Assembly (NCBI GenBank): GCA_021129655.1
Contig: JAJOLC010000019.1
Span: 1 to 34,326 of the forward strand
Length of the DNA stretch: 34,326 bases
Source of the DNA: Minisyncoccota bacterium
GTDB taxonomy: Bacteria; Patescibacteriota; Minisyncoccia; Phycocordibacterales; UBA918
Direction: 5' to 3'
Position numbers and translations under genes: made by a program. Positions 3,271 through 31,484 of this stretch are shown here, in pieces; positions within the stretch are counted from its first letter, which is position 1; every line of letters starts with the position of its first letter. The notes beneath the pieces are model-generated. The model did no database searches and was not told the origin of the DNA. It worked only from the letters and a program-made list of their open reading frames with translations.

Positions 3271-4284
3271 TTATTTTTTCGCTAGAACTGCTCGTTTGTA
3301 GGCACTAAGGTGTTCTAGTGCAATACCAGTTCCTTTTGCTACACAGAATAGAGCTTGATCGGCTACCGCTGCTTTTACTCCAGTTCGACGTCGGATTAGT
3401 TCCGGGAAGTTTCGTAGCTGTGAAGTTCCTCCAGTCATGATGATTCCTCCGTCAATTATGTCTGCTGCTAGTTCGGGTGGAGTTTCTTGAAACACATCTT
3501 TAATAGCCTTTACCATTTCCCTTAACTCTCTACCAACCGCCTTTACCATTTCATTACTTCTAATCTCTGTTGTTCTAGGTAAACCTGAAAGCATGTCGCG
3601 GCCCTTAATATCCATCACAAGCTCCTCCTCAAGTGGTAAAGCTGATCCGACTTTAATCTTAATCTCTTCAGCGGTCTTTTCTCCAATCGACAGGTTGCGG
3701 GTTTTCTTTACGTAGTCAATTATTGCCGCGTCGATTCTGTTGCCGGCACACTTCACTGAGTTAGAAGCCACAATACCTCCGAGCGAAATAACCGCCACAT
3801 CGATAGTTCCACCACCAATATCTACAATAATGTGTCCTTGCGGTTCATAAATCTTCACACCGGCGCCAATTGCAGCCAGGATGGGTTCTTTTACCACAAA
3901 GGCATTCTTAGCCCCAGCCTTCATAGTGGCTTCTACCACAGCCCGCCGCTCAGTCGAGGTCACACCAGCCGGCACAGACACCATCACATCTGGTCGGAAT
4001 AAGTGGTACTTACTCATTGATTTACGAAGAAAGTAACGAAGCATAGCTTCAGTCACTCGGTAGTCAGCAATCACACCATCTTTCATCGGACGATAAGCCC
4101 TAATGTTGTCAGGGGTTCGTCCAATCATAAGCTTAGCTTCCGAGCCAACAGCCAGAACTTTGTTGTCTTCAGACACCGCTACTACCGACGGCTCATTCAG
4201 AACTATCCCTTGTCCGGGTATAAAAACAAGAATATTAGTAGTACCTAAATCGATACCAACTTTTGGAGTCAAATTACCAAGCAT
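3271..4284 (-). CDS. mreB: Rod shape-determining actin homologue MreB/Mbl
   Basis: GIDLGTTN, NEPSVVA, RPMKDGVIADY, VDIGGGT, TAEEIKI, TGGTSQL motifs; 337 aa. Confidence 0.95.
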   Translation of the reverse strand: MLGNLTPKVGIDLGTTNILVFIPGQGIVLNEPSVVAVSEDNKVLAVGSEAKLMIGRTPDNIRAYRPMKDGVIADYRVTEAMLRYFLRKSMSKYHLFRPDVMVSVPAGVTSTERRAVVEATMKAGAKNAFVVKEPILAAIGAGVKIYEPQGHIIVDIGGGTIDVAVISLGGIVASNSVKCAGNRIDAAIIDYVKKTRNLSIGEKTAEEIKIKVGSALPLEEELVMDIKGRDMLSGLPRTTEIRSNEMVKAVGRELREMVKAIKDVFQETPPELAADIIDGGIIMTGGTSQLRNFPELIRRRTGVKAAVADQALFCVAKGTGIALEHLSAYKRAVLAKK

Positions 4285-4335
4285 ATATTAAGCCAATAGT
4301 ACCCGTTTTACACAATAGTACAACGTGCACTCTAT

Positions 4336-4354
4336 ATAGCATATATGCTATGCT
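4336..4354 (+). promoter_or_regulatory. Perfect 16-bp palindrome ATAGCATATATGCTAT (4336-4351) overlapping the extended -10 TGCTATGCT (4346-4354) of XRE-murA; candidate operator
   Basis: Palindrome read directly from the sequence; the -10 lies 8 nt before ATG 4363. Confidence 0.55.
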
Positions 4355-4362
4355 TTAGGTCT

Positions 4363-5862
4363 ATGCAACACATTGGAACTCGTATCACGGACGTTCGAGA
4401 AACGGCCGGAATGACTCAGGAAGCCTTAGCCAAGAAAATTGGCACTACTCAGAGCGCGATTGCTCGCATTGAATCTGGCAGGCAAAATGTCAGCGCTGAC
4501 ATGTTAAAGAAAATTGGTAAAGCTTTGGGCAAAAATCTTATCACCCTATCCCCCGGCACAGTCAATGTGTCTATCGAAGGCGGGAAGAAACTGTCTGGCG
4601 TAATCGAAACCAACACTTCTAAGAATGGTGCGGTTGGTCTACTGTGTGCTTCTTTGCTGAACAAGGGTAAAACCACTCTTCACAAAATGCCTCGTATCGA
4701 GGAGGTACACCGACTGGTTGAAGTATTGGAAAGTATTGATGTAAAAGTAGACTGGAAAGGTTCCACACTTACAATCACCCCTCCAAAGTCTTTTAGTCTA
4801 CAGAAAATAGATGTTGAAGCCGCTATGAAAACTCGCAGCATCGTGATGTTCATCGGACCTTTAATTCACCAGCTGAGATCATTCTCACTTCCTCAGTCTG
4901 GAGGATGTAAACTAGGCAGCCGCACTGTAAAGCCGCACTTTTATGCCCTTGAACATTTCGGAGTTGATATTCAAGCGACTGATGACGCCTTCGTTGTTAA
5001 AACTAGCATCAAACAACCCGAGGAAATCATTCTTTACGAATCAGGTGACACCGTGACTGAAAATGCTTTATTCGCAGCCGCTGGCAGCGCCGGAACAACT
5101 ATCATTAAATACGCTTCTTCAAACTACATGGTGCAGGAAGTTTGTACTTTCCTACAACTGTTTGGAGTAAAGATTGAAGGCTTTGGCACCACAACCTTAA
5201 CTGTAACCGGCGTTGGTTCAATTAACCAAGATATTGAATATACCTTGGCTGAGGACCCAACAGACACAATGTTCTTTCTAGCCGCTGCGGTTGTAACGAA
5301 TTCAAGTATCACTATTACTCGTTGTCCGATTGAATTCCTAGAACTAGAGCTACTAAAGCTTGAAAAAATGGGATTTAAGTACAAAAAATCAAAAGTTTAT
5401 TACGGTCATAACGGCGTAATTAAATTAGTAGACATCACCACCAGGCCGTCTAAGCTGGTTTCTCTGCATGAAAAAGTCTACGCTCGACCTTATCCAGGGC
5501 TAAATATAGATAACCTTCCTTTCTTCGCTGTTATAGCCACGCAAGCAGAAGGTCAGACTTTGATTCATGACTGGGTGTATGAAAAGCGAGCAATTTACTT
5601 TACAGAATTAGACAAATTAGGGGCCGAAACAGTACTAGCTGACCCGCACCGAATCTATATCAATGGTCCCACTAAACTTAAAGGCACTGAACTTATCTGC
5701 CCCCCAGCTCTCCGACCGGCCACTATTCTGCTCATTGCCATGCTTGGCGCATCTGGACACTCAGTTCTACGTAATATATACAGCATCAACCGTGGCTATG
5801 AAAAATTAGTAGAGCGACTGGAATCTTTGGGAGCTTCAATCTCATATATTGATGAATTCTAA
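4363..5862 (+). CDS. murA: UDP-N-acetylglucosamine 1-carboxyvinyltransferase with N-terminal XRE/Cro-C1 HTH domain
   Basis: The N-terminus IRxxR-like ITDVRETAGMTQEALAKKIGTTQSAIARIESGRQN is a classic HTH_3. MurA motifs: SKNG (K22 equivalent), GGCKLGSR (catalytic Cys loop), YPGLNIDN, INRGYEKLVERL. ATG 4363 is preferred to 4345 because 4345 lies within the promoter. Confidence 0.92.
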   Translation: MQHIGTRITDVRETAGMTQEALAKKIGTTQSAIARIESGRQNVSADMLKKIGKALGKNLITLSPGTVNVSIEGGKKLSGVIETNTSKNGAVGLLCASLLNKGKTTLHKMPRIEEVHRLVEVLESIDVKVDWKGSTLTITPPKSFSLQKIDVEAAMKTRSIVMFIGPLIHQLRSFSLPQSGGCKLGSRTVKPHFYALEHFGVDIQATDDAFVVKTSIKQPEEIILYESGDTVTENALFAAAGSAGTTIIKYASSNYMVQEVCTFLQLFGVKIEGFGTTTLTVTGVGSINQDIEYTLAEDPTDTMFFLAAAVVTNSSITITRCPIEFLELELLKLEKMGFKYKKSKVYYGHNGVIKLVDITTRPSKLVSLHEKVYARPYPGLNIDNLPFFAVIATQAEGQTLIHDWVYEKRAIYFTELDKLGAETVLADPHRIYINGPTKLKGTELICPPALRPATILLIAMLGASGHSVLRNIYSINRGYEKLVERLESLGASISYIDEF

Positions 5863-5873
5863 CGATTAGCCAC

Positions 5874-5913
5874 AAGGCCGCTCGATTGGCAATACAGCCA
5901 ATCGAGCGGCCTT
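5874..5913 (+). terminator. 17-bp perfect inverted repeat between murA and priA (terminator-like hairpin)
   Basis: AAGGCCGCTCGATTGGC-AATACA-GCCAATCGAGCGGCCTT with only a short T tail, immediately followed by TGCTATAAT. Confidence 0.65.
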
Positions 5914-5930
5914 TGCTATAATGCTCTCAC

Positions 5931-7826
5931 ATGTTCGTAACTCAAGTAACTCCTTTAATCCGTGGAACCAAACTTGAGTCTCTATCATACTTCTCAAGTA
6001 TAGAATATACCGTTGGTAGCTTTGTAGAAGTACCAATAAGAGGCAAAACCCAAACAGCAATCGTGACGGAGACCCGGTCTGTCAGCACCACCAAAACTGC
6101 CCTTAAAGCAGCTACCTTTTCTCTTCGCAAGCTACCAAACCAACCAGACCCGGTAGTTCTTCCTGAAACAATTCGTGACACAGCTTCTGAATTAGCAAAA
6201 ATCTACCCAGCTGCTATTGGCGGGATACTATTCGGCCTGCTTCCTCCTGATATACGAAATGGCTCAAGAGCCTACCCACGTCCAGACCTTGGTAACCACA
6301 ATGAAGAAACCATCCCTCAACTCCTGACTGCAAAAATTGACGAGCGGTACAGTGCTTACCAAAGCTTCATTAGAAGCACTTTTGCTCACCGCGGTTCAAT
6401 CATGTTTGTGGTGCCGACAGCAGTTGATATTCCCTATGCAGTAAAGCAGCTGGGTACCGGTATTGAAGACCGCTTAGTAGTATTTTCTCCAAGTCAGACT
6501 AAGCGTCAGCGAGATACTTCATACCGAAAATTGGTGGACACTACTACCGCTAAATTAATCATCACCACTCCTTCTTACGCCTATCTGGAGCGAGTGGACC
6601 TGATAGCCATAATCATTGAGCAATCATCAAGCGGACACTACGTAACAAAACAGCGACCTTACCTAGACCATCGAGACGCTCTTATTACTTACGCCCGAGT
6701 TTCTGGACGCTCTATATTGCTCGGTGACACTGTTCCGAGAACCGAAGACGAGGTAAGGAGGCGTGACGAACGCTACCTAACCTATGATGAGGAAGCTAAG
6801 CGAATTGCTTTCACTTCACCAGTTTCCATAGTCACTCAAAAAGACAAACCTAAGCCAGATTTAGCTTTTCAGTTATTTTCTAAGGAGTTAGTAACTAGTG
6901 TTGAGCGGGCCCTAGAAGCTAAGGGACACGTATTTTTCTACGCTGCCAGACGTGGACTAGCCCCAGTAGTAGCCTGCATAGACTGTGGGAATATTTTCCG
7001 CTGTCCAGACTCCAATACACCATACTCACTAATCCGAACCTTCAAAAACGGTGAAGAAAAGCGCTGGTTCGTATCCAGCACGTCAGGAAGGCGAGTACCT
7101 GCTTCTGATGTGTGTCCGCACTGTGGCTCTTGGCGGTTACGAGAAAGAGGGATTGGAATACAACAGGTATATGATGAGTGGAAAAATAAATTCCCTGACA
7201 CCGATGTAACTATCATGGATAGTACTACAGCCAGCACTCCCAAAAAAGCTGAGAAGCTGGCGGAAGAATTCTTTGCTAAAAAATCTGGAGTATTGATTGG
7301 AACTCAGATAGCTTTACCGTTCCTAAATCACGGGGTTGATGTGAGCGCCATCATCTCTCTTGATGCAGCTCGCTCAATTCCCACCTGGAGAGCGGACGAG
7401 TCATTATTTAGGCTAATATTAAGATTACGCGAATGCACTGTTAAAGAAGTGGTAATTCAGACACGAACCGAAACAGATAACCTGATGATTCACTCAACTC
7501 GAGGAGCCATCGAAAGATTTTATGATGATGAAATCGCTCTTCGGAAGATGCTTCAATACCCTCCTTTCAGCACCTTCATTCTTCTAACCTGGATTGGAAC
7601 CGTAAGTTCTGTATTAGAATTAGCAAAACCTATCATGACGATACTAGGAGACCATGAAGTCCAATACTACAACGACCCAAACTCAACTAAGGACAAAACT
7701 CAGCGACATGGGTTAATACGAATCCCCCAAGGAGAAGGAGCTGCTATTTATCCTGACCTACTGGCCAAGCTACGCAGCCTACCGCCTTATGTGAAGGTGG
7801 AAATAAATCCCGAAAGAATTGTCTAA
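5931..7826 (+). CDS. priA: Primosomal protein N' (PriA)-like, helicase motifs degenerate
   Basis: N-terminal 3'-binding domain (LSYFS..VGSFVEVPIRG), RRG.APVVACIDCG..CP..CPHCGS, GIGIQQV, IGTQ, VVIQT, RKMLQYPPF. Sits upstream of def-fmt, the usual priA-def-fmt arrangement. Confidence 0.85.
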   Translation: MFVTQVTPLIRGTKLESLSYFSSIEYTVGSFVEVPIRGKTQTAIVTETRSVSTTKTALKAATFSLRKLPNQPDPVVLPETIRDTASELAKIYPAAIGGILFGLLPPDIRNGSRAYPRPDLGNHNEETIPQLLTAKIDERYSAYQSFIRSTFAHRGSIMFVVPTAVDIPYAVKQLGTGIEDRLVVFSPSQTKRQRDTSYRKLVDTTTAKLIITTPSYAYLERVDLIAIIIEQSSSGHYVTKQRPYLDHRDALITYARVSGRSILLGDTVPRTEDEVRRRDERYLTYDEEAKRIAFTSPVSIVTQKDKPKPDLAFQLFSKELVTSVERALEAKGHVFFYAARRGLAPVVACIDCGNIFRCPDSNTPYSLIRTFKNGEEKRWFVSSTSGRRVPASDVCPHCGSWRLRERGIGIQQVYDEWKNKFPDTDVTIMDSTTASTPKKAEKLAEEFFAKKSGVLIGTQIALPFLNHGVDVSAIISLDAARSIPTWRADESLFRLILRLRECTVKEVVIQTRTETDNLMIHSTRGAIERFYDDEIALRKMLQYPPFSTFILLTWIGTVSSVLELAKPIMTILGDHEVQYYNDPNSTKDKTQRHGLIRIPQGEGAAIYPDLLAKLRSLPPYVKVEINPERIV

Positions 7827-9721: not shown

Positions 9722-10036
9722 TTAACCTTCGCATGATTCGCAGGTTGAGCCACCAACATGAATTTTAGGTTTTGCAGACTCTGTATTGTCGTTATCTGTA
9801 GTCAAGCGATTCTCTCTTATGTACTCAATAATATCTCCAGATTCATACATAGAAACACCCTTTTCAGAATCAACCAAAAAAGGAACTTGCATCTTCCCAC
9901 CTTTTTCCATCAGTTCTGTATGAGCTGCCTCGTCCTCTGAAACATCCTTCATTTCAAGCTCAATCTTGAGGTTTTCAGCCATCTGAATAACTCTTTGGCA
10001 AAATGGGCAAGTTGGTTTGTAGTAAAGGGTAAGCAT
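9722..10036 (-). CDS. Glutaredoxin/NrdH-like redoxin (GST-N type) with an extra C-terminal CxxC
   Basis: LYYKPTCPFCQRV, GGKMQVPFL, MYESGDIIEY; tail ends GGSTCESCEG. Confidence 0.88.
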   Translation of the reverse strand: MLTLYYKPTCPFCQRVIQMAENLKIELEMKDVSEDEAAHTELMEKGGKMQVPFLVDSEKGVSMYESGDIIEYIRENRLTTDNDNTESAKPKIHVGGSTCESCEG

Positions 10037-10151: not shown

Positions 10152-10177
10152 AAAAAGCACCCCTAGGGGTGCTTTTT
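10152..10177 (-). terminator. Rho-independent terminator downstream of the cold-shock gene
   Basis: AAAAAGCACCCC-TA-GGGGTGCTTTTT, 18 nt past the csp stop. Confidence 0.85.
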
Positions 10178-10195
10178 ATTTATACGAGTCTGAAA

Positions 10196-10399
10196 TTATT
10201 CAGCTGCTCGACTAACGTTTACAGCGTTAGGTCCTTTTGGACCTTCACCTACTTCAAATGTAAGCGCGTCACCTTCTTGAAGGTCATCAAACGCTACATC
10301 GTTAAGTTCGTTAACGTGGAAGAAAAGATCTTTTTCTTCACCATCTCGTGCGATAAATCCGTACCCGTTGTTGAGTCGGACAACTTTTCCTTGTTGCAT
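10196..10399 (-). CDS. csp: Cold-shock protein (CspA family)
   Basis: RNP1 NGYGFI and RNP2 DLFFH, GPKGPNAVNV; 67 aa. Confidence 0.95.
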   Translation of the reverse strand: MQQGKVVRLNNGYGFIARDGEEKDLFFHVNELNDVAFDDLQEGDALTFEVGEGPKGPNAVNVSRAAE

Positions 10400-10489
10400 A
10401 TTGTTCTAAACAAATTTTTTTAATAAATCTCAAACCTTTTGAGAAACGTATAAACATATTTGCTTAGTACAGTTCCGATTTGAGCCATA

Positions 10490-13726: not shown

Positions 13727-13802
13727 AGCAAATGATTGTTCTTAGTTAGCAATAATAAAACATACCATAGCGAACTAGAGAGGTCTTGCTATAGTAAGAC
13801 GT

Positions 13803-14549
13803 ATGAAAATACTTTTATCACCATCTAAATCACAAGACTTTGATAGCAAAAGTAACCTAGTTAATAAGACCTCCCCAATTTTTAGCTCTGAAACTAATAA
13901 ACTGGTTTCCTATATGCATGCGTACACAAAGGATGACCTAATGAAAATGATGAATATTTCAGAGAGATTGGCCGAACTAAATGTTGACCGGTACACAAAT
14001 TGGGCTGCGGCTAAACAGAAACAAGCAATTTCAGCATTTACCGGGGACGTCTATAGTGTATTTCAAAACAACACTCTATCAAACAGCACTCTAACTTACC
14101 TCGAAGAACATATACGGATTATTTCTGGTTTATATGGCCTTCTCAGTCCCCTCACTCTAATTAAGCCCTACCGACTAGAAATGGGCAGAAGGGTCTTCAC
14201 TAGTGCAGATAAATCGAACAGTATTAGACTGTATGATTTTTGGGGAGACTTAGTCACAAGCTATCTTACTAATCATGATGTAATTATAAACTTAGCTTCA
14301 AATGAGTACTGCAAGGTTATAGACACTTCCCTTCTTAAGGGTAAATTCATCACCATTGTATTCAAAACTAGAAAAAATGGGGCAATGAAAATTATCCCTA
14401 TCTTTGCAAAAAGGGAGCGAGGTGCCATGGCACTCTGGATGGCTCAAAACAACATAAAGAACGTAGAGAAGATAAAAGAGTATAACAAGAATGGATATCA
14501 GTTCAGCAAAGCTGATTCGAGTGAGTTAGCCTGGATTTTTGTAAATTAA
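13803..14549 (+). CDS. yaaA: Peroxide stress resistance protein YaaA (DUF328)
   Basis: MKILLSPSK, MNISERLAELN, FTGDVY, IISGLYGLL.P...I.PYRLEMG, IINLASNEY, AKRERGAMA. Confidence 0.93.
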   Translation: MKILLSPSKSQDFDSKSNLVNKTSPIFSSETNKLVSYMHAYTKDDLMKMMNISERLAELNVDRYTNWAAAKQKQAISAFTGDVYSVFQNNTLSNSTLTYLEEHIRIISGLYGLLSPLTLIKPYRLEMGRRVFTSADKSNSIRLYDFWGDLVTSYLTNHDVIINLASNEYCKVIDTSLLKGKFITIVFKTRKNGAMKIIPIFAKRERGAMALWMAQNNIKNVEKIKEYNKNGYQFSKADSSELAWIFVN

Positions 14550-14619: not shown

Positions 14620-15027
14620 TTAAGCTGTTGCTGTTGCTGTTGCTCCAGCTTCTGCTACAGCATGGTCATTCTCAACAGTACTACCGCTTACCCCTATAGC
14701 ACCAATGATATTCCCTTCTACATCCTTCACTGGCACACCACCCGGAAAAGTGATCAGACCCTCGTTTGAATGCTCAATACCAAACAGTGCTCCTCCTGGC
14801 TGTGAAAGTGTGCCGATAATACCAGTGTCCATATCAAAGAATCTAGCTGTTTTAGCTTTCTTGATTGATATATCCAAAGAACCTAACCAGGCTCCGTCCA
14901 TACGACCGAACGCGACCAAATTAGCACCAGCATCAACCACTGCAATATTCATTTTTGTATCCAACTCTACTGATTTTGCTTTTGCAGCGACAATCATTTT
15001 TTCTGCTTGTTCTAGGGTAATAGTCAT
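14620..15027 (-). CDS. GlcG/HbpS (DUF336) heme-binding family protein
   Basis: [54 protein letters not shown] 15027 preferred as start. Confidence 0.9.
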
Positions 15028-15128: not shown

Positions 15129-16689
15129 TCATGAGTCCAGTTTGTCGTCAGCCACTTCATAAACTGGGTCTTCATCCAAGTTCACTTCAACAATCTTCTC
15201 GGCGTTCTTCAGCAAACGCCTACAGTCATGACTTAAGTGATATAAGTGAAGCTTCTTCCCTGCTTGCAGATATTTGTCAGTCAGTGAATTAACAGCTTCA
15301 ATACCTGAATGATCTAGTATGCGAGCATCATTAAAATCAATAAACACCTCCTCTGGGTCATTAGCTACATTAAAGATACTTGAAAAGCTATGTATGGAAG
15401 CAAAGTACAGAGGACCGCTCAATTCGTAATGTTTACCACCGGTTTTATCTAAAAAGGCTTTAGCTGAAATACCCTGCGATTTTTTCCAACTAAAGACTAG
15501 TGCCGAAACAACAATACCCGCAATCACAGCTACTGCTAAATCAAACATAACAATAGTAGCGGAAACCAGAATAAGCACAAAAGCATCTGACCGGGGAATC
15601 TTCCTAATAATTCTCAAACTAGACCAAGCAAAGGTGCCAATTACCACCCTGAACATCACCCCCACTAGGGCCGCTAGAGGTATTTTCTCAATCAACGAAC
15701 CTGCAAATAGAATAAAACCAAACAAGGTCAGTCCAGCCATTATTCCAGCCCACCGGCCACGACCACCGGAATCCATATTGATCATACTTTGGCCCACCAT
15801 CGCACAGCCACCCATTCCTCCGAAGAAACCTGTCACGACATTAGCTACACCTTGAGCAGAACACTCAACATTACTTTGACCTCTAGTGTCGGTTTTCTCA
15901 TCAATCAGTGACATTATCATCAAAGACTCGACCAGCCCAATAAAGGCCAGAATAATTGCAAAGGGAAAGATTATTTTTAAGGTCTCAAAACCAAAAGTAA
16001 TGTCCGGAATTGAAAATGTTGGAAAACCAGCACTGTCTGACCACCATTCAACATATCGTAGACAGTGGGAGTATTTAAATCAAAGAAAACCACCAAAAAT
16101 GTGACCCGAGAGATGGAGGCCAGTGAAGCCGGCGCAGCTTTAGTAAATCGTGGCAAGAAAGCAATAACTGCCATTGTGAGTGCTATTAACCCACCCATTA
16201 GCATCAACTCCCCTGGCGGCAGCCATTCGCCATAAAACCAGCCAAAGTGACCGGCTGGTGTGAATGTTTGCAATTGCGGTATTTGAGCCAAGAAAATAAC
16301 AATTGCCAAACCGTTCACAAAACCCAGCATTGCAGGATGCGGAATAATACGAGAAAATTTACCCAATCTAAAGAAAGCAACGGTCAGCTGAATCATCCCC
16401 ATAAGTATTACAGTGGCAAACAAGTATTCGACTCCATGAGTACGAACTAGCTCAATCATCACTACTGCCAAGGCACCCGTGGCACCGGAAATCATCCCGG
16501 GTCGACCGCTCAAAACAGCCGCTATAAAGCTAACTATTGCAGCCGCATACAAACCCACAATCGGGTCCACTCCGGCCACAAAGGCAAAAGCAATCGCCTC
16601 TGGCACAAGAGCTAGAGCGACAGTAATCCAGACAATGTGTCTAAACGCCAATTGTTGGGAGATAAATATGAAAGTACTTTTTGTTGCAT
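15129..16689 (-). pseudogene. sulP: SulP-family anion transporter with STAS domain, broken by two frameshifts
   Basis: Reconstructed frame: ATG 16689 MQQKVLSYLSPNNWRLDTLSG, shift near 16629, ITVALALVPEAIAFA..GRPGMISGATGA...MLNGGQ, shift near 16034, SAGFPTFSIP..GLVESL..GGMGGCAMVGQS..STAS (GPLYFAS, DHSGIEA). Adding one base at each site gives about 520 aa. Confidence 0.85.
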
Positions 16690-19413: not shown

Positions 19414-20619
19414 ATGTTCGTCTCAAGTGTTGGAATGTCTAGTGGTATAGATGGAAAAAATGCCACCAGTCTGGCAATTAAAATTGCCAAATCACAACTA
19501 CAAGCTGAATCCCCCAACGCAGCCATTGTCTTCGCCTCTTCTGAATTCAATCAACAGGAAGTGGTTGATACAGCTATGTCTCTTTTGCCTGAAGGAATTT
19601 CATTAATAGGAACCTCTACAGCTGGTGAAATATCTCAAAATGGACCAAGCGGTTCACCTTCAGTGTTAATAATGCTGCTAGCTTCAGACACGGTTGGATT
19701 CGTAGCAGCCTCAGTCAAAAATGCGGCAGGAAATGAGGAAGCGGCAGGGGCAGAGCTGGCCGAAAAACTGAAAACACAAACTGAGGAAGAGATTAAATTC
19801 ATCACCCTTCACAGCGATGGATTAACAGTTAATCCTAGTGCTATTTTAAGAAGTCTAGATGTTTCTTTCCCTGAACTGCCTATTACTGGAGGATCTAGCG
19901 GGGATGACGGTAATTTCAAACAAACCTATCAGTACCACAATGGCACTGTAATGAGTTCGGGGCTAACCGCTCTGGCCTTCACCGGTAATCTAAATCTAGC
20001 CATCAGTGTTCGTCACGGCTGGAGTCCAATTAGTGCTTTTAGGACCATCACCAAAACTGAAGGAAATGTTGTATATGAGATTGACGATAAACCAGCTATT
20101 GAACTTTATGAAGAATATATCGGTAAAGAAGAAGCCGCGAACCTTAAAAATGTCACCTTGGGTGAAGTTGCTTTGTCTTATCCATTGGGAGTTAAGGATA
20201 CCGAAAGTGGAGTTATGCTATTGAGGGCTCCCATAACTGTAGACAACAACGGTTACATAACTTTTGGTGGTGAAATGTCAGAAGGAGATCAAGTGCAGTT
20301 AATGATCGGAAGTAAAGAGCAAGCCGTCGAAGCAGCTAGGGATACGGCAGAATATGCTCTTAAAGAATTTGGAGAAAAACCGGGAGCTGCTTTGATATTT
20401 ACTTGCCATGTCAGAAACACATTATTTAAGTCACGAGATGAGTCTAAATTAGAAATTCAAGCTATTCAAAATATAATCGGAAAAGATGTGCCCTTAGCTG
20501 GATTCTACACCTACGCCGAACAAGCGCCAGTTGATGACACAAATTTAGACATAAAAACCTGTAACAGTAAAAGCCACAACGAAACCATTGTGACTGTATT
20601 ATTAGGAGAAACAAAATGA
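19414..20619 (+). CDS. FIST_N/FIST_C sensory protein (NosP-like)
   Basis: IGTSTAGEI, DGL, ITGGSSGDD, HGWSPI, ITKTEGNVVYEIDDKPA, YPLG, FTCHVR (SCxxR equivalent), AGFYTYAEQ, HNET. Confidence 0.9.
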   Translation: MFVSSVGMSSGIDGKNATSLAIKIAKSQLQAESPNAAIVFASSEFNQQEVVDTAMSLLPEGISLIGTSTAGEISQNGPSGSPSVLIMLLASDTVGFVAASVKNAAGNEEAAGAELAEKLKTQTEEEIKFITLHSDGLTVNPSAILRSLDVSFPELPITGGSSGDDGNFKQTYQYHNGTVMSSGLTALAFTGNLNLAISVRHGWSPISAFRTITKTEGNVVYEIDDKPAIELYEEYIGKEEAANLKNVTLGEVALSYPLGVKDTESGVMLLRAPITVDNNGYITFGGEMSEGDQVQLMIGSKEQAVEAARDTAEYALKEFGEKPGAALIFTCHVRNTLFKSRDESKLEIQAIQNIIGKDVPLAGFYTYAEQAPVDDTNLDIKTCNSKSHNETIVTVLLGETK

Positions 20620-21443
20620 ATAAAGAAAAACCTACAATAGAATCACTACAAGCCGAGATTAATGAACTTAACATTATTATTGTTGGATTAGAAAACACAT
20701 CTAAAATGTTAGTTCGCAGGGACTTAGACCTGAAAAAAGCTCATAACAATCTAAAATCTTTAGATAAGGAAAAAACAGATTTTGTTGCTATTGCGGCACA
20801 TCAGCTACGCACACCTCTAACAACGACCATGTGGGCTCATAAAATGTTTCTGGAGGGTGACACAGGTAATTTAACAAGCAAACAGAAAGATTTGGCGGAA
20901 AGATCATTCGCCAGCGTCAAACACATGCATGCACTAGTAGAGGAGTTAATTCAAGTTGATAAACTAGAATACGGTAATACCGAACTAAAAATTCAAAGTG
21001 GCAACATACAAAAACTCATAGAAACTATACTGGCTGAACATACCTTAAAAATAGCGGAGGCTAACCTCACCATTAATAAAAATTATTCTTATGCGGAACC
21101 AATTAGTTTTGACCCGTACAAATTATCAGACGCCTTAGGTAATCTAATAAATAATGCGGTCAAGTACACACCAGATAATGGTAAAATATCCATTACTATC
21201 ATTAAGAAGGCTAGTAATGTTTATATAGAAATCACAGACAATGGAATAGGTGTCCCGATCGGTGAGGAGTCTAGATTATTTCATAAGTTCAGTAGAATAA
21301 AAAATGCTGAACAGGTTGACGCCGGCGGATCAGGACTAGGTCTCTATATTGCTAAAAAAATTATAGAAAAGCACAAAGGCACCTTAACCTTTTCACACAA
21401 TGATGGTCCAGGGTCAACCTTTACTGTAAAAATTCCGTGTTAG
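20616..21443 (+). CDS. Soluble histidine kinase (HisKA plus HATPase_c, no sensor domain)
   Basis: H-box AAHQLRTPL, N-box NLINNAVKY, G1 DNGIG, F-box LFHKF, G2 GSGLGL; coiled-coil N-terminus; ATGA overlap with the FIST gene. Confidence 0.93.
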   Translation: MNKEKPTIESLQAEINELNIIIVGLENTSKMLVRRDLDLKKAHNNLKSLDKEKTDFVAIAAHQLRTPLTTTMWAHKMFLEGDTGNLTSKQKDLAERSFASVKHMHALVEELIQVDKLEYGNTELKIQSGNIQKLIETILAEHTLKIAEANLTINKNYSYAEPISFDPYKLSDALGNLINNAVKYTPDNGKISITIIKKASNVYIEITDNGIGVPIGEESRLFHKFSRIKNAEQVDAGGSGLGLYIAKKIIEKHKGTLTFSHNDGPGSTFTVKIPC

Positions 21444-21468
21444 TATAAATTTAATAAGACTATATATT

Positions 21469-21897
21469 ATGTCAGTATCAAAGAAAGTTGATTTTGCACT
21501 TGAATCTATGAAGCAAAAATCTTTGGGGTCAGTAAAGGTTCTTATGATTGAGGATGATTCTATGATTCAGGAGATGGTTATCATTAAATTGGTTTCTCAC
21601 GGCTGTATTCCCTATGCAACCAAAGACGGTTCAGAGGCTGTATCAATGGCTGAACAATATAAGCCGCATATTATAATTTTAGACCTAATGCTTCCTGGGA
21701 AAACTGGCGAAGAGGTTCTAAAAGAACTGAAAGAACACACTGATTTGTCAAACACTCCAATTATAGTATTCACCAATAAAAGTAGTCACGAAGATAAAGA
21801 AACCCTAATTAAATTAGGGGCAGACAAATACTTCGTAAAAGCTCAAACAGACCTAAATGATCTGGTCACAACCATAAAGGATCTGGTAAGTAAGTAG
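21469..21897 (+). CDS. Single-domain response regulator (receiver only)
   Basis: VLMIEDD, ILDLMLP (phosphoacceptor Asp), VFTN, GADKYFVK; no output domain. Confidence 0.92.
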   Translation: MSVSKKVDFALESMKQKSLGSVKVLMIEDDSMIQEMVIIKLVSHGCIPYATKDGSEAVSMAEQYKPHIIILDLMLPGKTGEEVLKELKEHTDLSNTPIIVFTNKSSHEDKETLIKLGADKYFVKAQTDLNDLVTTIKDLVSK

Positions 21898-22626: not shown

Positions 22627-23265
22627 TTAGGAAGACTCCACCTCTTTAGCCATAATCATGGCCTTTACTCTCATAGTAGAAACAACAGCATCACGTCCTC
22701 GCTCATCAAGTTGCATAGTAATAAACTTGATTGTCTCCTCAAGATTAGGGATTCTTACATTCTCCAAGGCTGACACACGACGACGAGTTTTTTCAATTTC
22801 TTCAGCCAGGTTTTCTGCTGTCTTTTCTAATCCAGCGAGGTGCAAAATATCAACAAAAACTTCGTCGAACTTGACCATCGCGTTGTCGAGATCACCAGTA
22901 GTTTCAAACATTCCGTATGAGAAAGCTGAGCCCTTTTTCTCGATTGAGAATTCAGGGATTTTAACAGACATAATACTGTTAACTTTTACTCCCAAATCAA
23001 TCTTGGCGTTAGGCACCATAAAGGCTGTCCCTAGCGCAGCCGCTGCTGTCATTCCACTAGCTCGTGAGTATGAATCAAAAGCTGAACCGAGACGACTTTC
23101 TACAGATTCACGCAGGTCTCTGGCTTCAAAAATAACCGCCATGAATTTCTTCACGAGCCCATCTCGCTTGTCTTTGAGTAGTTTATGCCCCTTCTTAGCA
23201 ACCTTGAGTTCTTTCTTAAGACGCAAGAGTGATACTCGGGTTGGGCTAACTTTTAATATGGCCAT
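22627..23265 (-). CDS. ntpD: V/A-type ATPase subunit D
   Basis: PTR..LL.LK..L..AKKGHKLLKDKRD.L and EIEKTRRRVSALENV.IP. Confidence 0.95.
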   Translation of the reverse strand: MAILKVSPTRVSLLRLKKELKVAKKGHKLLKDKRDGLVKKFMAVIFEARDLRESVESRLGSAFDSYSRASGMTAAAALGTAFMVPNAKIDLGVKVNSIMSVKIPEFSIEKKGSAFSYGMFETTGDLDNAMVKFDEVFVDILHLAGLEKTAENLAEEIEKTRRRVSALENVRIPNLEETIKFITMQLDERGRDAVVSTMRVKAMIMAKEVESS

Positions 23266-23380
23266 AGATTTTAGTAATTAGTTTAGATTAGGTGTTCTAG
23301 CAATTTCCTCTAGGAGAGGAGAAAATTGAGAACTAAATTCGAAATAGTCGCTTTGCTCATTTTCTCATTCATTATACCAA

Positions 23381-24775
23381 TTAGGCTTCTTCTTCATTAG
23401 TTACGGCTGGCATATGCTTTTTAATCAAGTCTGCCTTTACTCGCTTAAGTGAGGCTCGTGGTAGTAGAGAAAGTAACTTCCATCCAATGTCTAAAGACTC
23501 GTCTACTGAACGGTTTTCGTATTCACCTTGTCCTACGAATTCAGCTTCGAAGGCTGTAGCGAACTTAAGGTGGGCTCGGTCTGTATCATCTAGTGAAGCT
23601 TCACCAAGAACTACAGCTAGCTCACGTACTTCTCGTCCAGTTGCATATGAAGCAAAGAGTTGATCCTTCAAAGAAGAGTGATCGGCTCGAGTCTTTCCTT
23701 CACCCACTCCAGCTGACCATAGTCGTGAAAGTGAACCTTGTACATCTACTGGTGGGAATACTCCCTTCTGGTATAGCTCACGAGAAACCACGAACTGACC
23801 TTCAGTAATGTATCCAGTAAGGTCTGGTACTGGGTGAGTTTTGTCGTCATCCGGCATTGTAAGAATTGGAATTTGAGTAATAGTTCCAGACTTACCCTTA
23901 ACTCGACCAGCTCGTTCGTAAAGAGTAGAAAGGTCAGTGTATAGATACCCTGGGTATCCTCGTCGTCCTGGTACTTCCTTTCGAGCGGCAGACACTTCTC
24001 GCAGAGCTTCACAGTAGTTGGTCATATCAGTAAGAATAACCAGTACGTGCATTCCCTTTTCAAAGGCTAGGTACTCAGCTGTTGTAAGTGCCATACGCGG
24101 TGTAGAAATACGTTCCACTACCGGGTCGGCCGCTGTGTTGATAAATAGAACTGAACGCTCTAGCGCTCCAGCTTCTTCGAATTCCCGACGGAAATATTCA
24201 GCTTCTTCAAAAGAAACACCAAGGGTGGCAAAAACAATAGCAAAGTCTCCCCCATCTTTCACTGATGCCTGACGAGCAATCTGTGCAGCTAGTCGTGCAT
24301 GAGGTAGTCCTGCTCCAGAGAAAATCGGAAGCTTCTGTCCTCGCACAAGAGTATTCATGACGTCGATAGAACTAATACCAGTCTGAATGAAGTCATCTGG
24401 AAATTCTCGTGAGTAAGGATTGATTGGTTCTCCAGAAATATCTAGACGTTGCTCTGGAACAAGTTCTGGTCCATTATCAGCTACTTCACCAGCTCCGTTG
24501 AACACTCGTCCGAGCATGTCTTCTGATACACCAAGCTTCAAAGTTTCACCCTTGAATCGAGCTCGAGTACCGGCTGCTGTCATACCACTTGTTGGTGCAA
24601 ACATCTGCACTACAGCTTTGTCCTTTGCAATATCAAGCACCTTACCAAAGCGTGGCGCTTTTTCTCCTGGCACATTAACTTCTACAAGCTCGTCGTATTT
24701 TACTCCTTCAACCCCCTCTACCACTAGTAGTGGTCCGGCGATTGATGAAATGTCTGTATATTCTTTTTGACTCAT
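23381..24775 (-). CDS. ntpB: V/A-type ATPase subunit B
   Basis: [76 protein letters not shown]. Confidence 0.97.
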
Positions 24776-24789
24776 GATAAATAAATTAA

Positions 24790-26592
24790 TTATGCCAAGG
24801 CGCTGATATCAGTACTGATTCGTTCCTGATATGACTGATAATCTTCTGGTGTTGCTTTTAGGTTACCTTTAATTGCTTGGAATTCTGCAATAGTTGGGAT
24901 TTCTGCAAATGTCTTAAAGTCGAATTCTTCTTTCGTCACAACATCCTTACCTAGTTCGTAGAAAGTCACTAGTGACTTAAGTAGACTGTACTGATTAGCT
25001 AGCGGCGTGTAAGCATCGTCTGCATCAAACGCATTCTGGAAAAGAAAATCTTCTCGAATCATTCCTGCCACTTTCAACACAAGCTTGTCGCTGTTTGAAA
25101 GTGACTCCATACCTACCAGTCGCACAATTTCCAAAAGTGATGATTCTTTTTCTAGAAGAGTGAGAGCTATCTTTCTTACTTCGCTAAAATCTGGAGCAAT
25201 TTCTCGTGCCCAGAACTCTTCAAAGTTTGGAGCGTAAAGTGAGTATGATGTTAACCAGTTAATTGACGGGAAGTGCTTCTTGTAAGCAAGGTCTGAGTCT
25301 AGTGACCAGAAAGTCTTAGTTACTCGAAGAGTTGCCTGAGATACTGGCTCGGAAAGGTCTCCACCAGGAGGAGATACCGCACCAATCACTGTTAGTGAAC
25401 CGGTTCGTCCCTCGCTTCCTAGAGTCTTTACCATTCCTGCTCGTTCGTAGAATTCTGCAGTTCGTGATGATAGGTACGCTGGGTAACCTTCTTCACCCGG
25501 CATTTCTTCTAGACGCCCTGAAATCTCACGCATCGCCTCAGCCCACCTAGAAGTTGAGTCTGCCATAAGAGCTACGTTGTATCCCATGTCTCGGTAATAT
25601 TCAGCAATTGTGATTCCGGTATAAACAGAAGCTTCTCGCGCTGCCACCGGCATGTTTGAAGTGTTAGCAATAAGGATTGTTCGCTTCATAAGCGGCTCTC
25701 CTGTGTTTGGGTCGATAAGGTGTGGGAATTCTGACAATACTTCTGTCATTTCATTTCCTCGCTCACCACAACCAATGTATACGATAATCTCAGCATCACA
25801 GTACTTAGCAATTCCCTGCTGAGTCACTGTTTTACCTGCTCCGAATGGTCCAGGAATACATCCTGCTCCACCCTTAGCAATTGGGAAAAATGTGTCGATA
25901 GAACGTCCTCCAGTCCGTAGTGGTTCGTTAGGGAAAATCTTCTTAGCCTTTGGACGAGGTTGTCGAATTGGCCAGTACTGAAGCATTTCAACAGAAGCAA
26001 CGGTATCGTCTGCTCGCTTTAGAGTAGCGATTGTATCAGTCACTTTGAACTCACCACTCTCGATAGAAACTACTGTCCCACCTTCTGTAGGAGGAACCAT
26101 AATTTTGTGAACAATTACTGAAGTTTCTTGCACTTCACCAAGAACATCACCAGCCACAACAGTATCACCCACTTTCACAACTGGAGTAAATTTCCACATT
26201 TTCAACATGTCGATAGCTTCTGCTTCGATACCTCGCTTAATGAAACAGTTACCAGCAGCAGCTTCAATCTTGTGCAGCGGCCGTTGTACACCATCATAAA
26301 TAGACTCTAGAAGTCCGGGGGCAAGCGCTACAGACATAGTTCGTCCGGTTCGGTACACAACGTCACCAGGACCAATTCCAGCTGTCTCTTCGTACACCTG
26401 AATTGCGGCCACATCACCGTGCAGTTCGATGATTTCTCCGAGCAGTTTTTCCTCTGAAACTTTAACAACTTCGTAAAGCTTAGCTTCAGCCATTCCGCTA
26501 ACGCGAACTAGCGGTCCAGTTACACGCTCAATTACACCAGTTGCTACATCGGTGTTTGTTTGTGCTTGTGTTGTTTCTTGTGAATTAGTCAT
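24790..26592 (-). CDS. ntpA: V/A-type ATPase catalytic subunit A
   Basis: Walker [66 protein letters not shown]. At 600 aa it has no intein. Confidence 0.97.
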
Positions 26593-26634
26593 GATGTTCT
26601 TGTAAGGTGGGTAAAGTAATAAAAGTTAAGTTCT

Positions 26635-26762
26635 TTATGAGGAACGTGGTCGAGGGAAGTTCAAGGAGTTCAACATTCTGTCGAGGAAGTCGGAGTCTGT
26701 GCTACGGCGACCGAGAGAGAATGTTTGACGACAATGAAATTCACCGACCACGTTCCTCATAA
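26635..26762. mobile_element. 128-bp palindromic element with perfect 18-bp terminal inverted repeats (MITE/RPE-like)
   Basis: TTATGAGGAACGTGGTCG (26635-26652) and CGACCACGTTCCTCATAA (26745-26762), with nested internal stems AACATTCT/AGAATGTT and GTCG/CGAC. Mobility is inferred, not shown. Confidence 0.6.
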
Positions 26763-27113
26763 TTAAATAATGGCTGAGCCGACTGCCTGTTCTGCTAGTC
26801 GACGCAATCGGTCGAGAGCAAAACCTTGAGCTCCTTCTGGTCCAGGAAGGATTACCACTGCTGGTAACGGACCGGCCACAATCTTCGCGTATGCGTCATG
26901 GTCAACTGAAGCTACTAGATTTTCAATGACACAAACGATGGCGTATTTGGTATCGGAGTCTGGGTCTAGGGTTAGTCGCTTGATTTTATCTAGCTCTGCC
27001 AGTGCCTCATCTGATGTCTGAGCTGGGAAGGTTTCTACTCCCAAAGCCTTGAATCCAGACACTGTATCGGCTGGGCCGACAATGGCAATTTTGTATTCGT
27101 TATTCGTTAACAT
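26763..27113 (-). CDS. V/A-type ATPase subunit F
   Basis: KIAIVG..DTV.GFKALG, P.VVILPG, L.RLAEQAVGSAI; located between subunits C and A. Confidence 0.9.
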   Translation of the reverse strand: MLTNNEYKIAIVGPADTVSGFKALGVETFPAQTSDEALAELDKIKRLTLDPDSDTKYAIVCVIENLVASVDHDAYAKIVAGPLPAVVILPGPEGAQGFALDRLRRLAEQAVGSAII

Positions 27114-28086
27114 AAGCCATTTTTAGATTAGCGCGAATATCCTCTTCTTTCATACCACTGTTCTTCCCCACCACGATTGTCCTAACGTTAGCTGCCGACT
27201 GCTTGCACTGCAAGTAATAGAGAACTAACGATGCTGATGAGAACATGTCAAAACTTGCTTGCCTGGACAAAGTCAAAATATATTCAGCGGACCGTGCATC
27301 GATACGAGTAGTATTTCCAGTTTCCTCGTAATACTCGATTGCATCAGACCAGAAGTCTGCACCATCAAGTTTAGACAATGCTTGGAAAATTTGGTCTTTA
27401 GTTTCCATTTCTTCAGCCTGAAACGTTCCACCAGTTATGAAAGTAGGAGTGGTATCTGAGTGTTTATGTTCAATAGTTCGGAGACGACCCTTTACATTGA
27501 ACATATCAATTACAGCTTTGAAATACTTTTTAATAAAAGCATCGGAAGAAGCTGTAACAATGCGTTCTGAAGTAGCAAAATAAACAGCGTCAAATATACC
27601 GTCTACTTTGTTAATTTCTCCAGCCGCTACTACTCGTACTGCTTCATCGTAGGCAACCTGCCAGTCAGACTGTAGTCGATTCAAAGTACCTGCCTCAGCG
27701 TGTGAATGTAGGTACTCAGGATCATATGAACCTCGCTTAGAAACATAAGGCTTACAATCTTCCAATGAGTAACCCTTGGCTGTAGCTTTAGCAAACACTC
27801 GCAAGTTGTGAATGTCGTACTGAACCCACAACACTCGGAACATATCTCCAGCTGGGGCAATTCGATGAATCAGCTTTTTTGCATCTATCAAAGTGTGCTC
27901 GATACCATCAGCGATATCTTCTGAATCAACTCTAGCTACAAATGGAGCTAAGTATGTCTCCTTCAGAGCAGACTCAAGGTCATCGCCTGGTTCTGCTACC
28001 AGTAGACGCTCAATATCCGTCTTAGTCAGCAGGTACTGAGTCAAGGTATTTACACGACTTGTGCTGTAAATAAACGGAGTATGCAT
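27100..28086 (-). CDS. ntpC: V/A-type ATPase subunit C (d)
   Basis: YSTSRV..L...LL, YDIHNL, IDMFN, NVRTIVVGK; 328 aa; operon position. Confidence 0.88.
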   Translation of the reverse strand: MHTPFIYSTSRVNTLTQYLLTKTDIERLLVAEPGDDLESALKETYLAPFVARVDSEDIADGIEHTLIDAKKLIHRIAPAGDMFRVLWVQYDIHNLRVFAKATAKGYSLEDCKPYVSKRGSYDPEYLHSHAEAGTLNRLQSDWQVAYDEAVRVVAAGEINKVDGIFDAVYFATSERIVTASSDAFIKKYFKAVIDMFNVKGRLRTIEHKHSDTTPTFITGGTFQAEEMETKDQIFQALSKLDGADFWSDAIEYYEETGNTTRIDARSAEYILTLSRQASFDMFSSASLVLYYLQCKQSAANVRTIVVGKNSGMKEEDIRANLKMAYVNE

Positions 28087-28087
28087 T

Positions 28088-28657
28088 TTAGTTGAGTACC
28101 ATATTAACCACTTTCATCTCTATCTTGTCTCGCTTCTCATCGAATAGTCGATTTAATGTCACATCGTAAACACCGTCCTTGGCATGAGCGATAAAACCAG
28201 AAGTAATACCGGCCTGCACTTCCACCTTAGTGGTGATATTGAGAGTACTTAACAATGTTTCTGTTTCAGACACTCGAGCTTCGGGTGCATAAACTACTAT
28301 TAGTTCAGCTTCCTTTGGCATAATTTGAGAAGCTTGTTCACTGTAGAAAGCCACGTACTTTTCTGCCGACAGTCCGAGTAGTGATTCTTCAACCTCAGCA
28401 AATAGAACATCGATTTGTTCTCTTTTAGCTGTTTGCAAAGCAATCTTTCCAGCCTGCTTAGCTTGTGACACTGCCACTAGCTCTAGATGTGATTGTTGTT
28501 TTTTTACAGACACTTTGTGAGTCTGATTCAATTCAGCAACAGCTGCTTCAGTCTCACGCTGAATCTGCTCAACCTCAGCCTTAGCTTTAGTTGTTATTAC
28601 AAACACTTTCTCTGCAGTATCTTGTTCGATTTTTTCTATCAGCGTGTTTTGAGACAT
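28088..28657 (-). CDS. ntpE: V/A-type ATPase subunit E
   Basis: Coiled-coil N-terminus (LIEKIEQD), C-terminal SGFI...G.YDVT; position between K and C. Confidence 0.82.
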   Translation of the reverse strand: MSQNTLIEKIEQDTAEKVFVITTKAKAEVEQIQRETEAAVAELNQTHKVSVKKQQSHLELVAVSQAKQAGKIALQTAKREQIDVLFAEVEESLLGLSAEKYVAFYSEQASQIMPKEAELIVVYAPEARVSETETLLSTLNITTKVEVQAGITSGFIAHAKDGVYDVTLNRLFDEKRDKIEMKVVNMVLN

Positions 28658-28667
28658 GAAAGTTTAA

Positions 28668-29150
28668 TTAACCTGCAATTGAAATAAGTAGGATGAAGCT
28701 GATTAGAACTCCGAAGATAGCCCATGTTTCCACCATTACGGACAGAACGATAGCCTTACCCATGTTGCTTTCGTCTTTTGCAATCATTGAGATACCTGCT
28801 GCTGCTACGATTCCCTGGAACATACCTGAGAAGTAACCAGCTACGCCGATAGGGATTCCAGCCATAAGATACTGAAGACCTGTTGCAGTATCAATCATTA
28901 CTACTCCATCTGCTCCTAGGACTCCTGAGAAATTAAGAATCAAGAAGGCTCCCACTAGACCATAAATACCCTGTGAACCTGGAAGTGCCTGCATAAGAAG
29001 CATCTTTCCGAAAAGCTGTGGCTTTTCACCAAGCACTCCGGCCGCTGCTTGTCCTGCGTGCCCCATTCCGATTGCTGAGCCACTGAATCCGAGAGCGGCT
29101 GCAATTGCTGCTCCTGCGAAAACCAACCCTACTCCAATTAATGTTTCCAT
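28668..29150 (-). CDS. ntpK: V/A-type ATPase rotor subunit K (four helices, Na+-type signature)
   Basis: GSAIG, QALPGSQGIYG, SGMFQG, MVETWA; aligns by eye with E. hirae NtpK (LLPGTQGLYG, SGIAQG, MVETYA). Confidence 0.94.
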   Translation of the reverse strand: METLIGVGLVFAGAAIAAALGFSGSAIGMGHAGQAAAGVLGEKPQLFGKMLLMQALPGSQGIYGLVGAFLILNFSGVLGADGVVMIDTATGLQYLMAGIPIGVAGYFSGMFQGIVAAAGISMIAKDESNMGKAIVLSVMVETWAIFGVLISFILLISIAG

Positions 29151-29216
29151 AATACTTTTGTTATTTAATGTTTATTTGACTAATTATTTATAAATCTACC
29201 TCTCCCCTAACAACGG

Positions 29217-31181: not shown

Positions 31182-31484
31182 TTATTTAAAGTTCTGCTTA
31201 ATTACTTTAAGTACTTCTTCTTTACTATCGGCAAACTTTTTTTTCACAGCAGTAACATTGTCTGTTGTTTCAACATCAATCTTACCTGTCATGTCAGCGA
31301 CATGCTTTTCATATTCTTTGAGAGCAGCTTTTCCGGCTTCATCTAACTTTTTTCCTTCAGACTCTAGCCGTAAAGATTTTTCTTCACGAGCTGCAGTTAC
31401 AGAAGCAGCTGCTTCTGCTTTAGCAGTTTCAATCCCTGTTTCAGCCTCTTGTTCAGCTTTCAGTACTTCATCTAGAGCAGTCAT
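31182..31484 (-). CDS. V/A-type ATPase peripheral stalk subunit G/H
   Basis: 100-aa Ala/Glu/Lys coiled coil (LDEVLKAEQEAE..IE.AK.EA); first gene of the operon. Confidence 0.78.
   Translation of the reverse strand: MTALDEVLKAEQEAETGIETAKAEAAASVTAAREEKSLRLESEGKKLDEAGKAALKEYEKHVADMTGKIDVETTDNVTAVKKKFADSKEEVLKVIKQNFK

Follow-up and report, generated by a model that had tools for sequence, protein, structure and literature searches.

In the ultra-small Minisyncoccota (Patescibacteria) bacterium represented by GenBank assembly GCA_021129655.1, MurA, the enzyme of the first committed step of peptidoglycan synthesis, is joined in one chain to a helix-turn-helix (HTH) DNA-binding domain of the XRE family, and an 18-bp inverted repeat lies across the extended -10 element in front of the fusion gene. 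The stretch analysed, referred to below as the window, is contig JAJOLC010000019.1, positions 1 to 34,326 of the forward strand (34,326 nt). The fusion is present in the window and its relatives with the catalytic residues kept, and the repeat is conserved, consistently placed and specific to the murA promoter. A conserved palindrome over a gene's own -10 is the arrangement that would be expected for autoregulation by the fused XRE domain, and the reading favoured here, with a probability of roughly 0.65, is that this domain binds the repeat as a dimer and represses its own promoter, in the manner of BirA, PutA and NadR. That the fused HTH, and not another protein, occupies the repeat, that it does so as a dimer and that binding represses are steps that we infer. 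The features on which the argument turns are as follows.

4335-4352, unstranded: candidate operator, the 18-bp inverted repeat TATAGCA-TATA-TGCTATG, with one mismatch to the family consensus TATAKCA-N4-TGMTATA
4336-4351: perfect 16-bp palindrome ATAGCATATATGCTAT, the core of the candidate operator
4346-4354, plus strand: putative extended -10 of the fusion gene, as judged from its sequence (TG at 4346-4347, hexamer TATGCT at 4349-4354), with the ATG 8 nt further on
4363-5862, plus strand: HTH_3::MurA fusion gene (499 aa and stop), identified from Pfam and NCBIfam profiles, homologues and solved relatives
4393-4539, plus strand: HTH domain of XRE/Cro-C1 type (Pfam HTH_3; alignment with the 434 repressor), with recognition helix TTQSAIARIE
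4576-5820, plus strand: MurA catalytic domain (Pfam EPSP_synthase), with the active-site cysteine codon at 4906-4908

The fusion open reading frame (ORF) matches HTH_3 (E 5.3e-15) and then EPSP_synthase (E 4.6e-46), and a Pfam scan of the protein found no domain besides these two. Its first in-frame ATG, taken as the start by the ORF finder, is at 4345; because the database copy of the protein has 499 residues and close relatives start MQHIG or MQDIG, the start is placed instead at ATG 4363, and the gap between the divergent mreB and murA genes is therefore 78 bp. An intact fusion, divergent from mreB across a gap of this length, is also what a first-pass annotation of the DNA had described.

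Conservation and placing of the inverted repeat

The same annotation had drawn attention to the perfect palindrome overlapping the murA extended -10, and the palindrome is indeed found there. By itself it is weak evidence, and the case rests on the comparison with relatives. A chance test of the palindrome that allowed up to three mismatches gave one site against 0.23 expected, with at least one in 23 of 100 shuffles, and the window as a whole contains six perfect 16-mer palindromes against a mean of 0.56 in 200 simulations, 41 % of the simulated windows having at least one. One of the six, ATGTCAGCGCTGACAT at 4487-4502, falls inside the HTH coding sequence (residues QNVSADM) and has 2-6 arm mismatches in 13 relatives; it is thus not conserved at the DNA level and is probably due to chance, so perfect palindromes do arise here without being kept. 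Such figures would suit the view that the site at 4336-4351 is likewise a chance feature of AT-rich intergenic DNA. What sets this site above chance is its conservation across relatives, in sequence, spacing and position alike, and in the light of the counts given next that view is barely credible.

The remaining perfect palindromes lie at 10157-10172, 24963-24978, 31401-31416 and 34270-34285. The first of these is GC-rich, is flanked by a run of A and a run of T, lies in the short gap between ORFs at 9722-10036 (minus strand) and 10169-10423 (plus strand), and looks like a two-way terminator; the second lies inside the gene for the A subunit of a V/A-type ATPase. The only other near match to the operator in the window, at 14695-14712, was considered as a second operator and is taken as chance, being uneven and within an HbpS-like coding sequence.

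A scan of species-representative genomes found at least 598 stretches that encode a relative of the fusion protein, among the 600 matches listed, and the best 80 of these make up the locus set used throughout; their titles name Paceibacteria, Saccharimonadia (including Nanosynbacter), Uhrbacteria, Doudnabacteria, Liptonbacteria and Taylorbacteria. Among the 76 loci with at least 80 nt of upstream sequence, 63 carry the inverted repeat TATA[G/T]CA-N4-TG[C/A]TATA no more than 200 nt upstream of the fusion gene, with at most two of the 14 specified bases mismatched. The repeat reads TATAGCA-N4-TGCTATA in the closest clade and TATATCA-N4-TGATATA in most others, and the spacer is always 4 bp. When TATAKCANNNNTGMTATA was scanned over 569,405 nt, that is, the 80 loci and the window, 60 copies with at most one mismatch were recovered, 54 of them within 160 nt upstream of a fusion gene, in 50 loci; this zone amounts to about 2 % of the scanned sequence, yet it holds about 90 % of the near-perfect copies. 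Three of the other six are also upstream of a fusion gene, at -171, -186 and -278, and these belong to three of the seven loci (out of 78) that have no copy with three or fewer mismatches within 160 nt. When 20 sites were used to build a sequence-only model, it produced 132 matches at E<=1, seven of which, in a table read by eye, lay elsewhere. The hypothesis of self-regulation, checked in this way against the possibility that orthologous fusions have no conserved palindrome upstream, has survived, and these sequence comparisons mark the palindrome at the extended -10 as conserved and as particular to murA promoters. Five loci (L020, L021, L026, L030 and L037) have a second, often better copy of the repeat 56-78 nt upstream of a weaker proximal one (in the stretch 55-80 nt upstream), following a terminator hairpin; the doubled repeats could be a pair of operators, or the upstream copy could mark a distal promoter whose leader is long.

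The two arms of the repeat differ in what they share with other promoters. The right arm, with two further bases, forms TGnTATAAT, an extended -10, and relatives have similar boxes at the same place; the gap between -10 hexamer and ATG is 6-10 nt in 42 of 63 loci. Other genes in the window are built to the same design, with TGCTATAAT followed by 8 nt before the gene at 5931 and TGCTATAGT followed by 7 nt before the gene at 13803. The generic promoter of the clade approximates TTTGCTATAAT, with an ATG 6-9 nt further on (window 5914-5933 and 13780-13805), and so consists of an extended -10 with no clear -35; in the closest clade, C follows the TG at 13 of 17 such sites. Judged from sequence, the usual arrangement in these genomes seems to be an extended -10 promoter and a leaderless mRNA, and the fusion-gene mRNA is probably leaderless as well.

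The left arm, in contrast, is not a general promoter feature, since with at most one mismatch it is present at 37 of 50 murA promoters as against 2 of 72 other promoters of the leaderless, extended -10 type. It lies at about -26 to -20, where RNA polymerase is not known to make sequence contacts. Nor is it a plain mirror image of the -10. The hexamer's final T is retained on the right in 51 of 63 loci, and its counterpart on the left is an A in only 29 of 63. An RNA element was also considered as an explanation of the repeat and was set aside, a search for Rfam matches having returned none and the predicted RNA fold being no better than that of shuffled sequences (z 0.21).

The fusion protein and its family

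The enzyme part of the window protein scores as MurA and not as AroA. With NF006873, the NCBIfam model of the MurA subfamily, it scores 314 bits, above the cut-off of 297, and it reaches only 82 bits with the aroA model TIGR01356; its score with the strict equivalog TIGR01072, 300.3 bits, is below the cut-off of 392.7, which fits a divergent branch in the Patescibacteria. The top 32 solved relatives of the enzyme part are all MurA (best 5ujs_A, E 1.9e-50), and the active-site loop aligns with that of solved MurA. Nine active-site residues, K87, N88, R158, C182, R187, D383, R409, R451 and R477, do not vary in any of the 78 full-length fusions (77 loci and the window), nor in an alignment that includes unfused MurA; in the numbering of the Escherichia coli enzyme, the active-site set presumably includes K22, N23, C115 and R120. 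The catalytic motifs recognized at first pass are thus kept throughout the family, and with these residues invariant the fusion MurA would be expected to be enzymatically active.

Both domains are present in all 120 of the best homologues listed (80-100 % identical), the named ones being labelled plain MurA from Nomurabacteria, Kaiserbacteria, Parcubacteria or Patescibacteria. Among cluster representatives, nine full-length fusions were found, with identity down to 31 %. In a quick maximum-likelihood tree built from 62 rows of the MurA domain (SH-aLRT support only), a single group with support of 96 contains the 52 fusions together with three unfused proteins, and the other seven unfused MurA proteins fall outside it, a pattern that would fit if the fusion is old and the head was lost later in a few cases. 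Seven further proteins from outside the window (P0133, P0134, P0141, P0143, P0148, P0232 and P0270) also combine HTH_3 with EPSP_synthase and are 29-39 % identical to the window protein. They have neither the active-site cysteine loop nor the lysine equivalent to K22, and they keep the recognition helix TSQSA..R.E; they may be dead paralogues, without catalytic activity and with a part in regulation or sensing only.

The head has the marks of a DNA-binding domain. The window protein scores 59.4 bits with HTH_3 against a cut-off of 23, and its residues 4-66 align over the full length of the DNA-binding domain of the 434 repressor (1per_L, E 2.9e-5), as well as with HipB, HigA and C.AhdI, proteins that bind inverted repeats as dimers. 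The linker between the HTH and the 430-aa enzyme is about 8 residues long, and no separate dimerisation domain is evident. MurA is usually regarded as a monomer.

A different role for the head would be that of a protein- or ribosome-binding module, tethering the enzyme to MreB as RodZ does or acting in the manner of MBF1, with the palindrome unrelated to it. RodZ binds MreB via an XRE-like HTH, the gene divergent from the fusion is mreB in the window and in 13 of 80 loci, and MBF1/EDF1 chains are among the weak matches in the structural database. A RodZ-like, MreB-binding HTH was nevertheless rejected: the RodZ-type model HTH_25 gives 13.3 bits (E 0.077) against a cut-off of 24.6, to be set beside the score with HTH_3, no RodZ chain appears among the solved-structure matches at E<=0.01, and most fusion loci have no mreB nearby. 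Since the head as a protein-binding module would also leave a conserved, murA-specific repeat unexplained, this role is considered very improbable.

The repeat may also be asked to serve as a real operator for some other regulator, such as a small stand-alone XRE protein, with the HTH of MurA having another role. Stand-alone XRE proteins of about 93 aa in Parcubacteria (P0302, P0305 and P0306) do share the helix KKIGTTQSAIARIE with the fusion, and the helix matches the common XRE consensus; the N-terminal extension of these three proteins resembles that of antitoxin-type HTH proteins. Against another binder, the site tracks the fusion gene through changing neighbours and through lineages that are 52-100 % identical in the fusion protein, no second regulator gene is conserved beside the fusion gene in the loci examined, and the simplest candidate is the domain encoded directly downstream of the site. 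Binding by a separate regulator is for these reasons thought unlikely, and the fused HTH is kept as the preferred binder.

Neighbouring genes and the question of mreB

The surroundings of the fusion gene in the window include mreB, three shorter elements in or near the intergenic gap, and a hairpin downstream.

3271-4284, minus strand: mreB (337 aa), divergent neighbour of the fusion gene (Pfam MreB_Mbl, E 2.2e-128; NCBIfam NF010539, 433.8 bits against a cut-off of 293)
4280-4288, unstranded: partial copy AGCATATAT over the mreB start codon; an exact repeat, probably chance
4296-4301, minus strand: likely mreB -10 box TACTAT, inside the first CAATAGTAC and 11 nt before the mreB ATG; its function is suggested by its sequence
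4313-4321, unstranded: second copy of CAATAGTAC; an exact repeat, probably chance
5876-5911, plus strand: 14-bp GC-rich hairpin right after the murA stop, with a TTT tail only; its function is suggested by its sequence

The hairpin was not flagged by a terminator scan because its T run is short, and it is adjoined by the TGCTATAAT promoter of the next gene (5914-5922). With a hairpin after its stop codon and a following gene that has a promoter of its own, the fusion gene looks monocistronic.

Across the locus set the upstream neighbour of the fusion gene varies. A divergent mreB is characteristic of the closest clade (13 of 80 loci, within the fetched flank), a divergent serine hydroxymethyltransferase gene (glyA) is found in Saccharimonadia, and a divergent murB in loci L029, L032, L038, L051 and L058; other neighbours are DUF4446 and co-directional SET-domain, APH, prolyl-tRNA-synthetase-like, Wzy-like and murB genes. 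The repeat is intact beside mreB, glyA, murB, DUF4446 and co-directional genes. Among seven loci with co-directional neighbours it is intact in six; in the seventh, L063, a perfect copy overlaps the assigned start codon. In Nanosynbacter-type loci (L041, L043, L045-L047, L050 and L073) a separate TGATATAAT box belonging to the divergent glyA lies some 16 nt upstream from the palindrome, glyA also has a GGAGG ribosome-binding site, and leadered and leaderless genes therefore stand back to back.

Three of the loci with a divergent murB are those in which the mirrored arm could itself serve as a promoter, murB beginning 6-8 nt past it (L029, 2900-2945; L051, 2934-2989; L058, 1477-1532). A single symmetric site would there lie on both promoters, those of murA and murB, the genes for the first two steps of peptidoglycan synthesis. 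The same three loci lend some colour to the proposal that the palindrome is a symmetric bidirectional promoter, consisting of back-to-back extended -10 boxes for murA and the divergent gene, with no repressor involved. Its right arm is, after all, a generic extended -10. Elsewhere in L029, at 6733-6760, extended -10 boxes TATAGCA-N10-TGCTATA stand back to back between two divergent, apparently leaderless genes, from which it follows that compact divergent promoters can form inverted repeats without a repressor, in that case with a spacer of 10 bp and not 4. Bacterial bidirectional promoters are, moreover, described as pseudo-symmetrical sequences in two papers (PMC12825309, PMC10268837). The difficulty for the proposal is that a -10 on both strands was encountered in L029, L051 and L058 only. 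The left arm is rare at other leaderless-type promoters and its last mirrored base is poorly kept, as set out above; the repeat persists beside co-directional neighbours; the divergent gene has a separate -10 both in the window (mreB) and in the Nanosynbacter-type loci (glyA); and the spacer of the murA repeat is fixed at 4 bp. A bidirectional promoter with no repressor is accordingly regarded as an improbable account of the repeat, and an operator for the fused HTH remains the preferred one.

According to the first-pass annotation, the fusion protein would control mreB together with its own gene, and the exact 9-bp repeats that it listed, AGCATATAT at 4280-4288 and CAATAGTAC at 4294-4302 and 4313-4321, are all present. 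The part of the proposal that gave mreB TACTAT boxes within CAATAGTAC holds for the first copy, whose box recurs in relatives, and not for the second, which is unconserved; at the position of AGCATATAT over the mreB start, relatives have unrelated sequence. Only two blocks recur in the compact mreB-murA spacers, as judged by eye, namely a -10-like box 8-15 nt before the mreB ATG and the palindrome. The distance from palindrome to mreB varies from 74 to several hundred bp, and in L001 and L017, where other DNA has come between mreB and murA, the palindrome stays beside murA. Joint control is thus not borne out: mreB is divergent in a minority of loci and has a -10-like box of its own, the palindrome stays with murA where the two genes are separated, and the varying distance and unconserved partial copies leave no evidence of the site controlling mreB. 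In the window the centre of the palindrome is about 53 bp upstream of the likely mreB start, and a local effect on mreB in this genome is conceivable.

Elsewhere in the window, a V/A-type ATPase operon occupies 22627-31175 (subunits D, B, A, F, C, K and I by Pfam), and 19414-21897 encodes a FIST-domain protein, a histidine kinase and a response regulator. At 15129-16651, the adjacent minus-strand ORFs 15977-16651 and 15129-15923 correspond to the N- and C-terminal parts of one sulfate permease with a STAS domain, and the permease gene may be split or frameshifted.

Proposed autoregulation and its relation to known systems

Several observations weigh against autoregulation by the fused domain. 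The genome scan was made with a recognition-helix peptide, T[TS]QSA[IV][AN]R[IM]E, as its probe, and all 80 loci share the helix by construction. Thirteen of the 76 loci have an intact HTH and no good copy of the repeat within 200 nt, and many Saccharimonadales have uneven arms, for example TATACC... on the left or TGGTAT on the right. The stand-alone Parcubacteria proteins with the same helix, and the inverted repeat that two ordinary promoters form in L029, belong to the same side of the balance. So do two limits on what might otherwise pass for co-variation of helix and operator. The residue before the helix glutamine is T where the variable right-arm base is C (14 of 14) and S where it is A or G (49 of 49), but this association, a change of the arms between G.C and T.A, amounts to a single event on the quick tree and is confounded in the closest clade, where other promoters also prefer TGC at 13 of 17 sites; the co-variation is only suggestive. 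More telling, and in favour of the operator, is the base preference within the S ('TSQS') lineages, in which the variable right-arm base is A at 44 of 49 murA promoters as against 20 of 54 other promoters.

If the favoured reading is right, events at the murA promoter would run as follows. The 18-bp inverted repeat at 4335-4352 would be the operator of HTH::MurA, its right arm doubling as the extended -10, and transcription would start at or next to the ATG to yield a leaderless mRNA. Two HTH domains would settle on the two arms, their centres 11 bp, or one helical turn, apart, and the bound pair would cover -26 to -9 and shut out RNA polymerase. MurA would in this way hold down its own synthesis, a case of negative autoregulation, and in the few lineages in which the mirrored arm may be the -10 of a divergent murB, the site would be shared by both early peptidoglycan genes.

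Whether the enzyme part would also act as a sensor is a more distant matter. That DNA binding might change when the enzyme closes on UDP-GlcNAc or UDP-MurNAc is speculation. In its broadest form, the idea would make MurA across the Patescibacteria both an enzyme and a metabolite-sensing transcription factor, in which the open-closed movement on UDP-GlcNAc, or on the feedback ligand UDP-MurNAc, sets operator binding of two HTH heads and so adjusts murA, together with any divergent murB, to how much UDP-sugar is available, while dead paralogues with the same helix serve as pure sensors on the same site. This extension is rather doubtful, and is held with much less confidence than autoregulation itself. 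If it were true, host-dependent cells would tune their early peptidoglycan genes to UDP-sugar supply.

How the rate of the first committed cell-wall step is set is an active question, and here a phylum-level radiation of host-dependent cells with tiny genomes appears to have wired MurA to its own promoter, the fusion being found in at least 598 species-level genomes. The analysis yields a defined 18-bp site and a defined protein that are open to a simple binding test, one of the first candidate regulator-operator pairs for the Patescibacteria, and a promoter model for these organisms (extended -10, leaderless). The idea is also testable because co-culture with the host is feasible for some members, Nanosynbacter among them.

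Among known systems, the closest parallel is BirA, the biotin protein ligase and repressor of the bio operon, which dimerises on DNA when its enzyme domain holds product. There, as here, an N-terminal HTH and an enzyme domain share one chain, and the inverted-repeat operator of BirA overlaps the promoter of genes of its own pathway, as the candidate repeat here overlaps the murA -10. The fusion differs in that its enzyme has the unrelated MurA/EPSP synthase fold, its HTH is of the XRE and not the winged-helix type, and its candidate operator is on the enzyme's own gene. PutA and NadR, the latter with an XRE-like N-terminal domain, are likewise metabolic enzymes with a fused DNA-binding domain that controls genes of their own pathway ('trigger enzymes'); the fusion protein, with a DNA-binding domain and a seemingly competent enzyme domain in one chain, would by analogy belong with them, although their enzymes and pathways are other than the one considered here. 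No cell-wall enzyme is among the described trigger enzymes, as far as the literature search reached.

The head itself resembles the 434 repressor and Cro, HipB, HigA and C.AhdI. It shares the GTTQ...E.G helix pattern with the 434 repressor, and dimers of this group bind short AT-rich inverted repeats that have half-sites one helical turn apart and overlap a promoter, as the candidate site does. Those proteins are small dedicated regulators, whereas the head considered here is joined to an enzyme of 430 aa. Unfused MurA belongs to the same enzyme family and has the same catalytic residues, and its known controls are post-translational: degradation through ClpCP and ReoM in Firmicutes and feedback by UDP-MurNAc in E. 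coli. A DNA-binding head with an operator at the promoter would add direct transcriptional self-control to these. A literature search that covered few subscription journals turned up no publication that deals with HTH-MurA fusions, with their operator or with leaderless promoters in these bacteria, in agreement with the first-pass remark that no described operator was known for such fusions. The fusion of enzyme and repressor is known as a kind; what appears to be new is that MurA should fill this role, throughout a phylum and with a defined site on a leaderless promoter.

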